Source: Eledone cirrhosa (lineage: Eukaryota). From it: a stretch of DNA of 64,000 nucleotides. Each line of letters opens with the position of its first letter. Position 1 is the first letter of the stretch. Position numbers and translations under genes: made by a program. Where the stretch lies: assembly GCA_964016885.1 (NCBI GenBank), contig OZ024741.1:234546001-234610000 (forward strand), in the 5' to 3' direction. Below the pieces are notes generated by a model. The model saw only the letters and a list, made by a program, of their open reading frames with translations. It did not search any database and was not told where the DNA came from. Below are positions 35,340 to 47,961 of the stretch, one piece after another.

Positions 35340-37260
35340 CTTATGACCTTAGCAACCTGTGCCCTACAAGACCAGCAAGAGGCAGACCACCTACCATTAC
35401 CTCAATGGCCAAGAAAACCCACACAGATAGATGGAACGGGTGGACCAGAGCCATACGGACACCCGAAAACCACGATGAACTGAAGAAAATGATTGCACAT
35501 GCGGTAGGGGCCAGCATAAAATTAACCCTTAAGGAACATATGTTCAAATTTAATGGAAAAACATATGCCCAAGAGGAAGGAGCAGCCATTGGTGTTAGCA
35601 TTGCAGGCGACATAGCTAACTTATTCATGGTATGGTGGGACAGTAGACTTAAACTTAAACTTAAAGAACAATTAGAAGACAGCTTAACCCTGATAATGTA
35701 CTCCCGCTACGTAGATGATATAAACATCATAGTTAAGACACCCCCACTAGAGAACAGTCAGGAACTAGAGAAAAACACAATGGAAAGCATCCAGCAAATA
35801 GCAAACTCCATCCACCAGAGCATTAGAGTTACTATAGACTACCCAAGTAGACACCCCAACCATCGATTACCTGTACTAGACACAGAGCTCTGGTTAGATA
35901 CCATTAACAACCAAAAACAAATCCTCCATTCCCATTATGCCAAACCCATGACTTCCAAACATCTGATCCACCGAAACTCGGCCATTTCGGACCATACCAA
36001 AATCAACATACTGATTACGGATTTGGTACGGGTGATGAGAAATGTGTCCCGCATGTGCAACCCCGAAGAACTAGAGAGACACATACAACACTTCATCCAC
36101 CGTATGCAGTTCTCTGGCTACAATCAGAGAGATAGAATCAGAGTGTATAGAGGAGCCAGAACCAAATGGGAAAAAATGGTAAATAATGACATAAATGGGA
36201 CCTGCCCCTTGTATAGGAGCAAATTTTGGAATAGAATAGAAAGAACTAGGAACAAGGCCAATAGAATAAACTCATGGTAGGATAGCAATAAATACCAGAG
36301 TGTAATGTTCATCAATACAACCCCTAGAGGCGAACTAGCCTACAAATTTAGAAGGGCCCTAAATAAACATAAACTCAATATTAAGATAGTAGAAAGACCA
36401 GGTACCTCCGTAAAAACACTTATTAGCAAGACATACCCGTTCCAAAGACCCTCATGTATAGATAAGAAATGTATAACCTGTAAAATAAGCCCCCATATTA
36501 ACTGTAAAACTAGAAATGTAGTGTATAGCATAAGATGTACTGAAGGACAATGTAGAAACAAAAATATAGTGTACATAGGTGAGACAGCTCGTAGTATAGG
36601 GGAACGGATAAATGAACACTGGCGAGACCTTCAAGATAATAAAGAATCATCTGTACTCTACCAACATGCTAAGATAGAACACAAGGGTAAATTTAGAGAA
36701 CATAGAAATAAAACTAGAATCCACACACAGAAAAGATGCAATGTTTAGGCAAATTACAGAGGCAGTAAGCATAAAAGAATTACAACCAAAATTAAATAGA
36801 AAATATGAGTGGAACAGCAACATCACAACTTACAATTAAGGACAAAATGAAAACACACACACACATAGAACAAACAACCAACCAACAACATGTAAATAAA
36901 TAAACAAATAGATAAATGAACACAAACACACACAGACACCCGGATGTGGCGCATGCGCAAACTGAGCACACAACACACACACAGAAACAAAATGGCGTAG
37001 GACAGAAGAAAGGAAAGGCACAGAAACAAAGAAAGGAATCCCCAGTCACTGAAGAGGTCACAGAGTGTGTGACGAAAGGACTATGACTATATATAAACAA
37101 CTATCTGGTTGTGGAACCAACCAACCAACCAGAAATTTATAAGTTTGTAGATTTGTAAATTTATAAATTTATAAATATATAATAAATTGAAGTGAAAGCA
37201 ACTGGTGCGTGTGTTTCTTATTGGCAACATGACCCTCCCAAAGTATAACAATATCGGTTT
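35340..37260 (+). mobile_element. 5'-truncated Penelope-like element (RT + GIY-YIG) with a 3' pseudo-LTR
   Basis: YAQEEGAAIG, YSRYVDD, LPVLD, HYAKP; in-frame TAG at 36278 then CIDKKCITC...NVVYSIRC...VYIGETARSIGERINEH. Confidence 0.92.
37044..37088 (+). ncRNA. Minimal type I hammerhead ribozyme, family C, in a Penelope pseudo-LTR
   Basis: AGTCA-CTGAAGA-G-GTCACA gagtg TGTGAC-GAAA-GGAC-TA-TGACT, co-oriented with the RT ORF. Confidence 0.75.
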
Positions 37261-37475
37261 CAACACACCATTTCAGATAAAGAATCTTGCTAAACAAATT
37301 CAGAAACGAAATATATATATATGTATATATCTATACATATATATATATATATATATATACATAAGTATTACGTGAGTCAAGTTTGAAAACAGTCGGTTGG
37401 GTGGTTCTCGACTTTTAGGGATTCAAACTCACACACACACAGACAGACATCCTCAGTTTTATATATAATGATATG

Positions 37476-43448: not shown

Positions 43449-44103
43449 ATCATCATCATCATCGTTTAACGTCCATCTTCCACGCTTGCAAGGGTTTGGA
43501 CGGGAGTTTTCCCACTTGAGGCAAGAGTGGTTGTCTTGCTTGCATAGGACTGTCTGGCGGGTTTTCTACGTCTGGATGCCCTTCCTAACACCAACCACAT
43601 TTACAGTGTGGACTGGGAGGTTTCTACCGTGTTACCTACACGGCTACATTACAGTGTGGACTGTGTGTTTTTTGGTCGTGACACCTACACAACCTCATTT
43701 GTTTCGGACTGGATGTTGTGGTACCAACATAACTTTACATTGAAAGGGGTGATGTGGATGCGGTGGGGGTAGTGGGACGGGGGTGTATTTTTGTTAGAGG
43801 TACCTACTGACTGTAGTAGGTTTCACTTTGTACTTAGGTAAGGCGGGTCGTCTGTATTACTGTATAGCGCCAAAGATCTCGGTCCAGTGACATTGTCTTG
43901 GAGAGGTGTAAATGTGTGAGGTCGGAATTTATCAAATCGTCCCAGGTTTTTCTGGGTCTGCCTAGTACGTGGCTACCGTCAATTTTTATCGCCGTCCACT
44001 TTTTTATACAGCTGTCATCTATCATGCGCATCACGTGACCGTACCAACGTAGCCTTCTCTTGAGTAAACAACATCTGATCCCTCTTATTTCTAATTTTTC
44101 CCT
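43449..44103 (-). mobile_element. RTE LINE 3' portion
   Basis: [15 protein letters not shown]; (CAT)n edge; matches 28381-29040. Confidence 0.9.
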
Positions 44104-44172
44104 TGTATATATTTTTCCCTATGTATATATATATGTGTGTGTATATATATATATATAGATATGTATGTATAT

Positions 44173-45180
44173 ATAACTTTGATAACTTTGATAGGTTTCG
44201 GCCTGTATTGACCCAGGCCATGTCTAACTTAATAGCACCACCTGGCGAAGTCTTACAAATCAGTGTTTCGGCACCATGGCCCACTCGAGCAGGGAGTTAT
44301 TGTTTACGGAGGCATATCCGGATGTAGGAGGCTTATCCGGGATTTCTTGAAGGAATTTATCCAAAGACTTCTTGAACTTGATGGGGTCTGTCTCTGCTTT
44401 GATGTGTTTTGGTATAATGTTAAAGAGTGCAGGGCCAATTGAGGTGAAATAATTGTGCCATATTGTTGTTATGTGATGCGAGTGGGATTTTTGTCCTGGG
44501 CAGATAGCACGGGGCCCAAGCCTTGGGTGTATACTAAAGATGATGCCAACATCATTTGGGCTAAGCTGATGTAACAGATAATGTAACGCTCACGGCGACG
44601 TTGAAGAGAATAAAGTTTGAGCTTTTCTAATCGACCCCAATAGTCAAGGCCTGTCATGCCAACTATCTTTTTTGTAATTGACCTTTGGGGTGCTTCAACT
44701 TTCATGATACTTTGTTTCGTGTGGGGTGACCCCAGTGGACAACAGTATTCAAAGTGGGGTCGGGCAAAAGTGGAGAAGAGAAGGACAACAGTGTGGATAT
44801 CTCTCGACTGGAAAGTTCTGAGAATCCAGGAACACATTCTGCGGGCCATATCAACTTTGCTGTTTATATGAGTGTCCCAGCTTATATTGTTGTCCACAAT
44901 TACTCTCAGGTCTCTGATGTTATTGGAAGCCACTAGAGTTTCACCCGAAGGAAGAGAGTATGGTAGTTTTAGAGCATCCTTTTTTCCAAAGTGGATTAGT
45001 TCAAATTTATCCTCATTATATATATATGTATATAAATATATGTATATATATAAATATATATATACATATATTTATATACATATATATATAATGAGGATAA
45101 ATTTGAACTAATCCACTTTGGAAAAAAGGATGCTCTAAAACTACCATACTCTCTTCCTTCGGGTGAAACTCTAGTGGCTT
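44173..45180 (-). mobile_element. CR1-group LINE 3' fragment (44173-45017) with an inverted duplicate (45090-45180)
   Basis: IRDLRVIVDNNISWDTHI, RPHFEYC, DYWGRLEKLKLYSLQRRRERY; (TATCAAAGT)n tail. Confidence 0.85.
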
Positions 45181-45345
45181 CCTCGATATGAATACCCCCT
45201 CCGCCTCCGTGGTATTTTCTTCGTGGTTATAAGAGGCTTAGCTCTGTTTCTCGACCGTTATATCGCGTGACTATCTCCCCCTCCGCCTTTTGGGATTCTT
45301 TCTCACGTCGTGTAGACGTGTTCTTGAGACTAGTAAAATGAGGTA

Positions 45346-45433
45346 TCCTCTTGATAAGTCGGCAGACCTCGCAAGGACTCTATATCTTTGATATATTGTT
45401 TTTGTTTATGCCACGAAACTACGTAGTCGAGGA
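45346..45433 (+). ncRNA. Type I hammerhead ribozyme, family D, U3-A8 core, long stem II insert
   Basis: TCCTC-TTGATAA-GT(C)GGCA...TGCCAC-GAAAC-TACGTA-GTC-GAGGA; palindromic stem III ACTACGTAGT; cleavage predicted after C45428. Confidence 0.82.
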
Positions 45434-45936
45434 ATTTAGGAACAGTTTAGGTATGATACATTTTATTACTAATTATATCTAAATGTTTCTTCTCTCTTCA
45501 TAATGTATTTTTAACTCTGATACTGGTTCAGTCTGGTTCAAACTGAATTGGTCTGTCCCAGTCATTCATTGAGCAACATCGGTGAAGTTGGCACCCTTAA
45601 CTCACAGTTGGGTGCGGATGCATTCATGTATATATGTGTGTGTCCGCATGTATCTGTGTGTTTCTTAATATATTAATAACTCCCTCTGGTCGAGCAATCT
45701 TTGAAGTGTGGGGACAACTGGAAAGCTTCCATTACTCATACTTCTCGCCTTCTTCACTACCTCTTCTACGGCCTCGATATGAATACCCCCTCCGCCTCCG
45801 TGGTATTTTCTTCGTGGTTATAAGAGGCTTAGCTCTGTTTCTCGACCGTTATATCGCGTGACTATCTCCCCCTCCGCCTTTTGGGATTCTTTCTCACGTC
45901 GTGTAGACGCGTTCTTGAGACTAGTAAAATGAGGTA

Positions 45937-46024
45937 TCCTCTTGATAAGTCGGCAGACCTCGCAAGGACTCTATATCTTTGATATATTGTTTTTGTTTAT
46001 GCCACGAAACTACGTAGTCGAGGA
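45937..46024 (+). ncRNA. Type I hammerhead ribozyme, family D, second copy
   Basis: Identical to 45346-45433; cleavage predicted after C46019. Confidence 0.82.
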
Positions 46025-46618
46025 ATTTAGGAACAGTTTAGGTATGATACATTTTATTACTAATTATATCTAAATGTTTCTTCTCTCTTCATAATGTATA
46101 TAAATATATATGTATATATATATATGTATATAAAAATGAAGCGAGAAGCGAAAACCAACCAAACAGTGAGTGTGTTCTGTTATTAATTCTGGCTATATAT
46201 ATATGTATATATATGTATATATATATATACATATATATATATATACATATATATATATACATATATATATACATATATATATACATATATATATACCTAT
46301 ATATATATACATATATATATATATACATATATATATATACATATATATATACATATATTTATATACATATATATATGGAGGCATATGGCAATCGAAAGGT
46401 TGTGAGTTCAATTCTCAGACCGAGAGATGTGTTGTTTCCTTGAGCAAGGCACTTTATTTCACATTGCTCCAGTTTACTCAGCTGTAGAAATGAGATGATA
46501 GGGACTGGGGTCCCTATCATTCCACTGTAAAGTGGTCGTGGTGCCACGGCAAAAAAAAAGCACCCAGCACTCACTGTAAATGAGGTTGGTGTTAGGAAGG
46601 GCATCCAGCTGTAGAAAT

Positions 46619-47166
46619 CAGGCTGTTCGCTTGTTTACAAACGAACAAAGCGGGCGTTATAATAAACGTTCGCTAAACTGATACGTACATATATATATGT
46701 CTACCTGTATGTATATATATATATATATATATATATGCATGCTACTGTACGTCTGTATAGATATATGTATGTACGTATACATACATACTTACATTTAAGT
46801 AAGTGCCGTACTAAGAGGGAGAAATGAAATTTCGTTTCATTATATTACAACTTATCGTTTTCGGTACGCCTGGCCGATTTAACTCACTCGATATGCAAAT
46901 TAGGCTGCTCAGCCGTTAATTTTCATAAGGAAAGTATATACTTTCGAACGTTCAACTATCTGGCAGAAGGGTATACGGTGCTGATGATAGCTAACAAGCT
47001 TGAAACTAGTACATCGTTCCTGTGTCAGTGTTGAACAAAAAGGTGACGTGGTTGCCTTAACACCGTATGGCATAAATCAGGCTGTTCGCTTGTTTACAAA
47101 CGAACAAAGCGGGCGTTATAATAAACGTTCGCTAAACTGATACGTACATATATATATGTGTACCTG

Positions 47167-47208
<42 letters not shown>

Positions 47209-47314
47209 TGCTACTGTACGTCTGTATACATATATGTATGTGCGTATACATACATACTTACATTTAAGTAAGTGCCGTACTAAGAGTGAGAAATGAAATT
47301 TCGTTTCATTATAT

Positions 47315-47318
<4 letters not shown>
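46619..47318 (+). mobile_element. Retrozyme-like family B, about 1.5 tandem units of 459 nt
   Basis: CAGGCTGTTCGCTTGTTTACAAACG at 46619 and 47078; internal TA microsatellite; one HHR per unit. Confidence 0.8.
46975..47017 (+). ncRNA. Minimal type I hammerhead ribozyme, family B
   Basis: ACGGTG-CTGATGA-TAGCTAACAAGCTT-GAAAC-TA-GTA-CATCGT; cleavage predicted after A47011. Confidence 0.88.
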
Positions 47319-47345
<27 letters not shown>

Positions 47346-47354
47346 TCATTAATT

Positions 47355-47747
47355 TGGACTGGATGTTGTGGTACCAACTTTACAGAGAAAGGGTGGTGTT
47401 GGTGGGAGAGGGAGGGTGGAGTAGGGGTAGTGGGATGGGGTGTATATTTGGTTAAGAGGTGCCTACTGATTGTAGGTTTCGCTTTGTACATAGGCAAGAT
47501 GGGTCTTCTGTATTACTGCGTAACACCAAAGATCTCGGTCCAGTGACATTGTCTTAGAGAGATGTAAGTGTGTAAAGGTCGGAATTTATCAAATCATCCC
47601 AGGTTTTTCTGGGTCTACCTACTCCGTAACTACCATCAATTTTGAAAGCCCTGCACTTTTTTTATACAGCTGTAGTCTTTCATGTGCATCACGTGACCAT
47701 ACCAACATAGTCTTCTCTCGAGTAAATAGTATCTGATCCCTCTTATT
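47355..47747 (-). mobile_element. RTE LINE fragment
   Basis: Homologous to about 28640-29025. Confidence 0.82.
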
Positions 47748-47961
47748 CATATGTATATATGTATGTATATATATATATATATGTGTATATATGTAAGTAT
47801 GTATATATGTATGTATATATGTATGTGTATATGTGTGTGTGTATATATGTATGTATATATATATATGTCTGTATATATATGTGTATGTATATATATATAT
47901 GTGTGTATATGTATATATATATGTATATGTTTGTATATATATATATATGTATGTATGTATG

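Follow-up and report, generated by a model that had tools for sequence, protein, structure and literature searches.

What are the two 328-bp direct repeats, each bearing a hammerhead motif, that stand among runs of TA in the 64,000-nucleotide stretch of DNA analysed here (the window), and how did they come to be there? The original prediction saw in them a young retrozyme with a 591-nt unit whose RNA would be cleaved and circularised, and the data on the family to which the locus belongs bear out the young retrozyme and its predicted 591-nt monomer. The reading that we favour, and regard as probable rather than secure, is that the 591-bp family is a non-LTR retrozyme spread into TA microsatellites by a Penelope-like reverse transcriptase-endonuclease, by way of an RNA cut by the hammerhead and circularised. 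At the level of DNA this reading has its basis in the size of the family, its tandem and head-to-head arrays, its TA targets, its two fixed 3' ends and the selection on its ribozyme fold.

The locus and its family

Both repeats (45181-45508 and 45772-46099) were found as originally described, 328 bp each at an offset of 591 bp and with identical hammerheads; a single mismatch (45319/45910) separates them and lies outside the ribozyme. The insertion and its surroundings are arranged as follows.

44300..45008, minus strand: C-terminal fragment of a LINE reverse transcriptase, flanking and outside the element
45009..45098: left part of the (TA)n target microsatellite, seen in the sequence
45090..45182, plus strand: 93 nt of the left flank (44925-45017) repeated exactly in inverted orientation, with 2-nt microhomology at the junction with the insert
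45181..46099, plus strand: whole insertion, 919 bp or 1.56 head-to-tail units of the 591-bp non-coding repeat, 5'-truncated and with its 3' end at E1
45196 and 45278, within 45196..45288, plus strand: C-rich 11-mer present twice, each time within a block that the subfamilies conserve
45484..45508, plus strand: E1, the first of the two fixed 3' ends, at unit position 328; the window copy ends there (46099); putative start of reverse transcription
45659..45675, plus strand: E2, the second fixed 3' end (unit position 493-495), 165 nt beyond E1; putative second start of reverse transcription
46100..46135: right part of the (TA)n target microsatellite, likewise seen in the sequence
46136..46195, plus strand: pseudo-LTR fragment of a Penelope-like family with a 1218-aa frame, a separate insertion in the same microsatellite

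The LINE fragment at 44300..45008 has no Pfam match and is probably CR1/L2-like by its motifs. Translation of the repeat locus in six frames meets stops throughout, at a regional GC content of 0.40. Arms of the family end at fixed 3' sites and their 5' ends are scattered, so that 45181, initially proposed as the left boundary, is an arbitrary truncation point, the right edge alone being a fixed end, and the 328-bp repeats are pseudo-LTRs; the scatter of 5' ends among family copies also disposes of their reading as LTRs. The window copy consists of one E1 arm, 919 nt in length, joined at its far end to the inverted flank copy. Inverted flank duplication of this kind was dropped as a general feature of the family, being present at only 1 of 28 single-arm loci. 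To judge by their sequence, the C-rich 11-mers are possible internal promoter boxes; the distant family F (loci L286-L315) contains the C-rich box region one extra time. The window also contains other direct repeats, 78-98% identical: 43700-44175 with 47350-47830, about 3,655 bp apart, and 46615-46855 with 47074-47324, 460-470 bp apart.

Counting genomic copies, as had been proposed at the outset, gave 7,681 exact matches to the 19-nt 3' half of the ribozyme and 7,083 to its 18-nt 5' half in the 3.0 Gb searched, against 0 for reversed-pattern controls. Near-identical copies of the unit are dispersed over many contigs, in tandem arrays and head-to-head pairs, and public sequencing runs contain the unit with loose ends into TA at both fixed ends. 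A local tandem duplication, a satellite or an assembly artefact with a chance resemblance to a hammerhead might be suspected from the position of the locus among long TA runs, from its inverted flank copy and from the lack of a public-run contig spanning it whole. For the family, however, this explanation is refuted by the thousands of dispersed copies on many contigs, by their fixed ends and by compensatory changes, and the presence of the unit and both its ends in independent public runs tells against it as well; we give it next to no credence.

The hammerhead and its conservation

Each repeat carries UCCUC-UUGAUAA-stem II-GAAAC-UACGUA-GUC-GAGGA, with C17 at 45428 and 46019, and the following parts can be assigned.

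45339..45371, plus strand: predicted pseudoknot, UGAGGU (45339-44) with ACCUCG (45366-71)
45346..45433, plus strand: type I hammerhead 1, with stem I at 45346-50/45429-33, core UUGAUAA at 45351-57 (U3-A8), stem II from 45358, GAAA at 45415-18 and predicted cleavage after C17 (45428)
45365..45408, plus strand: 44-nt insert in stem II, a short unpaired strand followed by a predicted hairpin of about 14 bp
45418..45427, plus strand: 10-nt palindrome of stem III (second copy 46009-46018), with pairing predicted between the two hammerheads
45429..46019, plus strand: predicted 591-nt monomer between both cleavage sites
45937..46024, plus strand: type I hammerhead 2, identical to hammerhead 1, with predicted cleavage after 46019

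All marks of a type I hammerhead are present: a core with a 3-8 pair, GAAA, NUH, stems I-III and an open stem I. An Rfam search of the window region at E<=10 returned zero hammerheads and only TA-driven miRNA matches, in agreement with the expectation that a standard search would overlook the ribozyme; the locus thereby exemplifies a natural hammerhead variant, with U3-A8 and a long stem II, that lies beyond Rfam detection. The palindrome forms a duplex of -12.9 kcal/mol and no hairpin by itself, as is expected of a dimeric ribozyme and as had been foreseen for stem III. The hammerhead-constrained fold lies only 1.1-1.8 kcal/mol from the best fold (one copy from each of three subfamilies). Compared with shuffles, folding of the 591-nt monomer has a z of -7.0 on the plus strand and -1.1 on the minus strand, the flanking LINE piece giving -0.5, and one old monomer of subfamily B folded no better than its shuffles (z -1.4).

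The insert in stem II, first described as a loop of about 44 nt, is for the most part a predicted 14-bp hairpin. Its short strand plausibly pairs, in our model, with the flank of stem I as a pseudoknot: 6 bp are possible, and all four subfamilies retain the 5-nt cores, UGAGG ahead of stem I and CCUCA/G where loop II begins; the changes seen amount to one wobble, and none is double-sided. Pseudoknots have been described in hammerheads of all three types (PMC3088659). The remainder of the insert is a hairpin with wobble changes in nine hand-picked copies, in which the shuffle control is not exceeded. Beyond the ribozyme, 20 nt past the cleavage site, a splice-donor-like AG/GTA motif (window 45448-45455) is kept in the four subfamilies; introns near the hammerhead are retained in Penelope-like elements (PMC4209133).

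Does the U3-A8 core reflect selection or decay? The pair is U-A in 126 of 128 distinct copies from four subfamilies, in a set selected for near-matches to the two halves of the ribozyme. The original prediction had named canonical or random cores elsewhere in the family as the sign of an incidental variant; the canonical C3-G8 form of the 5' half has 3 genomic matches, none of them within the family. The older subfamilies B (~82% identical) and C (~74%) have the same closed unit as the window family. Between the majority sequence of subfamily B and the window unit, 0 of 44 ribozyme columns differ against 96 of 543 others (Fisher p 0.0005), and for subfamily C the counts are 2 of 44 against 141 of 547 (p 0.0007), one of the two ribozyme differences being an artefact of gap placement. 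Subfamily C was found by a query outside the ribozyme; subfamily B is less independent, because its seed came through the ribozyme 3' half. Compensatory stem changes were absent among subfamilies A-C alone. They appear in family F, a distant homologue over most of the unit (profile E to 2e-32), which retains UUGAUAA, has double-sided changes in two stem I pairs and one stem II pair, and carries an 8-nt palindrome in place of the 10-nt one. With U3-A8 fixed in four subfamilies and compensatory changes in the most distant of them, selection on the ribozyme fold is well supported by sequence comparison, which vindicates the earlier view that the core was selected and not decayed.

Insertion ends and the candidate mobiliser

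Insertion ends were surveyed at 48 loci, comprising 78 arms, picked from the first 100 matches listed on contig C1. Among these listed matches, 72 of 78 arms finish at a fixed site (36 at E1, unit position 328, and 36 at E2, here unit position 489-501). In 69 of these 72 the arm is followed by (TA)n; the 5' ends are scattered. Head-to-head pairs of the young subfamily combine one E1 arm with one E2 arm in 28 of 28 cases with two fixed ends (21/21, and 7/7 among top-ranked loci; binomial p 4e-9); a duplicated locus enters this count a single time, and five pairs in which one end was non-standard are left out of it. The same pairing is found in older subfamilies, in 13/13 insertions of B and 14/15 of C (five overlapping loci skipped), which brings the overall figure to 55/56. 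Arms longer than one unit make up 32 of the 78 in the 48-locus survey, with a maximum of 2,907 nt, and one array arm of ~6.8 units was seen elsewhere in the genome. Partial tandems, an adjacent inverted 5'-truncated arm and a one-end tail, as in Penelope-like elements, are all present in the family. The same 8-mer stands before each fixed end (window 45484 and 45659), where a long predicted hairpin has its 3' foot, which suggests that the two could be copies of one protein-binding module.

Which enzyme could produce such ends? The genome contains two young Penelope-like families with long open frames, of 1218 aa and 775 aa. The 775-aa frame matches GIY-YIG above the Pfam cut-off and RVT_1 just under it; the 1218-aa frame has no Pfam match and is taken as Penelope-like by its motifs. 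Median identity among top-ranked copies is 98.8% in the 1218-aa family and 99.8% in the 775-aa family. Both families end in (TA)n at two sites each, and their inverted insertions have one of each in 9/9 and 5/5 cases; the (TA)n microsatellite target is common to the 591-bp repeat and to these young autonomous families. Both frames have C-x4-CxxC ahead of the GIY-YIG region, which PMC8557442 gives as a mark of Neptune and Nematis. Since copies of the unit are inserted into TA repeats and, like the local Penelope-like elements, have two fixed end points, they were likely spread by the enzyme of such elements; by analogy, a Neptune/Nematis-type element is the likely mobiliser of the repeat. A PDB sequence search with the 775-aa protein gave no match.

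Among individual copies, a complete arrangement of pseudo-LTR, 1218-aa frame and pseudo-LTR with a period of 4,136 bp is found at G000:C28:57246500-57256499 (L101); this copy contains an insert rich in Asn, and its hammerhead is minimal and of C3-G8 type. The 775-aa family is very young, its frame being open in many copies (loci L276-L285). The window itself contains, at 35342-37312, a 5'-truncated copy from a third family of Neptune type, whose identity to the 1218-aa protein is 66%; the copy ends in TA and has its own minimal hammerhead near 37048-37090.

No homology to the unit was detected, by BLAST and by family profile, in four Penelope-like families (the 1218-aa family, its 66% relative, the 775-aa family and an old decayed one), so that we infer the partner by insertion behaviour only. 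Might the unit instead be the detached pseudo-LTR of an autonomous Penelope-like element outside this sample, with its ribozyme as unselected baggage? The comparison covered just these four families, and Xenopus retrozymes are related to Penelope pseudo-LTRs (10.64898/2026.07.22.740005). At 0 of 48 loci from the pattern list, however, is the unit continuous with an ORF, nearby ORFs having their own pseudo-LTR, and three subfamilies down to ~74% identity share the closed non-coding unit, a fourth being homologous over most of it, with the ribozyme the best-kept part. We regard this origin as very unlikely.

The RNA template and relation to known systems

In the mechanism that we propose, tandem copies would be transcribed as read-through RNA, in which two hammerheads would pair through the palindrome and cleave after GUC, aided by the pseudoknot between the stem I flank and loop II, and a host ligase would circularise the 591-nt monomer; read-through, dimeric cleavage and circularisation are all likely. 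A dimeric Neptune/Nematis-type protein would then cut both strands of (TA)n and prime one cDNA at E1 and one at E2 of the same RNA. Each cDNA would roll round the circle over a variable length, giving 5'-truncated arrays, and survival of both would result in their head-to-head joining, one E1 arm with one E2 arm. Precedents include dimeric hammerhead cleavage (reviewed in PMC6765202) and the Penelope-like protein of the anole Poseidon element (PMC11167929). In purified form this protein cuts both DNA strands, extends each of them and uses two internal starts; it is a predicted dimer, with no strand difference in start site in vitro.

A bolder version, which we put forward tentatively and at less than even confidence, starts from a circular-RNA lineage that is ancient and free of ORFs, has a pseudoknotted U3-A8 hammerhead of its own and shares no sequence with its helper. 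The lineage would hijack a Penelope-like protein that acts as a dimer, each of the two active sites being assigned a different start on one RNA. If so, the near-strict pairing of E1 with E2 would amount to genomic proof of simultaneous twin priming by Penelope-like elements, and twin priming would account for their inverted arms and one-sided tails. The small RNA of the family, with starts 165 nt apart, offers a ready substrate for studying how these arms and tails arise, a point that the literature consulted describes as unresolved.

Did the template have to be a circle? With the same family and mobiliser, the RNA could usually be an uncleaved linear multimer, or one re-entered by jumping. 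The hammerhead would then be functional but slow, or act as a fold bound by protein, and circles would be by-products or would not form at all. The 5' ends of genomic copies bear on this: 19 matches (16 distinct) begin exactly at the cleavage site, against 5, 4 and 12 at three nearby control positions, 7 of the 12 representing a one-base deletion. The excess is 3-4-fold (p 0.0008 after and 0.002 before corrections, with three control positions), and 12 of 12 loci fetched with such an end are true truncations, one of them having both arms start there; stalling of the polymerase at local ribozyme structure could be an alternative source of these ends. They account for <1% of the family, which speaks for the linear template; most cDNAs run past the cleavage site, which fits circles but equally uncleaved RNA. 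According to the literature, Penelope-type hammerheads cleave poorly in vitro (PMC4209133, PMC11167929), the anole element inserted without needing its hammerhead (PMC11167929), and 8 of 9 Xenopus retrozyme dimers were uncleaved in vitro (10.64898/2026.07.22.740005).

Homogeneity does not single out a circle. Divergence is 0.24% among units within a locus, 0.27% between opposite arms and 2.3% between loci, but only 25 of 44 loci have a within-locus distance smaller than their distance to the closest other one, and young homogeneous arrays would likewise yield homogeneous daughters from a linear template. A 621-nt contig of run X1 (one unit plus 30) was dropped as evidence of circles, tandem DNA giving the same; its depth ratio to the LINE piece in X1 is like that in the DNA-like run X2. 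Against the linear template, copying with 5' truncation should not exceed the parental number of units, so that arrays ought to shrink over the long existence of the family, yet an arm of ~6.8 units exists; moreover, the catalytic core is invariant, and not the stems alone. We judge the linear template somewhat unlikely and continue to favour the circular one.

Non-LTR retrozymes, their circular RNAs and their proposed mobilisation by Penelope-like elements have been described (Cervera and De la Pena 2020, PMC7229834; Li et al. 2026, 10.64898/2026.07.22.740005). Metazoan members resemble the present family in their tandem non-coding units with one type I hammerhead each and GC <50%, their structured monomer, short palindromic stem III and co-occurring Penelope-like elements. 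The unit of 591 nt exceeds the 170-400 nt of PMC7229834 and falls within the 51-972 bp of 10.64898/2026.07.22.740005. The present ribozyme is set apart by its U3-A8 core and its long stem II, and a predicted pseudoknot takes the place of the usual loop 1-loop 2 contacts; at the level of DNA, the ends and targets of insertion have been resolved for this family. The enzyme that spreads animal retrozymes is still a hypothesis based on co-occurrence and pseudo-LTR similarity, and in this family the insertion signature of Penelope is itself visible, at thousands of loci that are young, in a genome with two intact candidate proteins.

With Neptune/Nematis-type elements (PMC8557442; anole Poseidon, PMC11167929) the family shares pseudo-LTR partial tandems, an inverted 5'-truncated arm, a one-end tail, two internal starts, an AT-rich or (TA)n target and a hammerhead in the repeat, whereas the 591-bp repeat is without an ORF. 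Penelope-like elements are described with inverted arms and a one-sided tail of 30-40 bp (PMC8557442), against 165 nt here and ~20-60 nt in the two intact families of this genome, whose pseudo-LTRs lack sequence similarity to the unit and carry minimal hammerheads of C3-G8 type. Plant LTR retrozymes, as outlined in PMC7229834, are of a similar monomer size class and also have two hammerheads flanking a non-coding monomer; they possess type III hammerheads, true LTRs, PBS/PPT and 4-bp target duplications, in contrast to the random 5' edge and type I hammerhead found here. Membership of that class was rejected on the type I hammerhead and the absence of a true LTR with a short target duplication.

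Covariation to U3-A8 has already been published (Perreault 2011, PMC3088659; Cervera 2014, PMC4209133) and is reported as active in vitro. The U3-A8 motifs of Schistosoma Cercyon (~1,300 hits, PMC4209133) are heterogeneous and mostly single, whereas the present family has a single fixed sequence, carried by thousands of tandem copies whose stem III is a full palindrome. The family is a well-conserved non-LTR retrozyme of a known kind; distinctive are its variant ribozyme and an insertion signature of Penelope type that is unusually clear. Our literature search found no description of the 591-bp family or of a counted end-pairing rule; Repbase, supplements and most subscription papers lay outside its scope, so either may exist. 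The ribozyme gave 1 chance match, without the 5' half, in a metagenome collection and 0 in a viral one.

Within the genome, a short-stem hammerhead pattern has 132 matches with U3-A8 (control 12) and 96 with C3-G8 (control 5), which indicates, at the level of pattern matches, that U3-A8 is not peculiar to the 591-bp family and is common in other hammerhead families. A pattern for other long-stem-II U3-A8 families gave 7 matches against 9 in its control, and is blind to family F. One further non-coding repeat, with a unit of ~317 bp, has a type I U3-A8 hammerhead with a 4-bp stem II and a different 10-nt palindrome, and lies in TA with inversions (L197-L199, L204, L205, L207-L209, L211 and L212, on G000 C1). 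More hammerhead-like families with U3-A8 have another stem III palindrome (L201, L202, L206, L215 and L216). At G000:C20:21011268-21011912, seven canonical hammerhead-like motifs follow one another with a 102-bp period, forming a very small retrozyme-like array.
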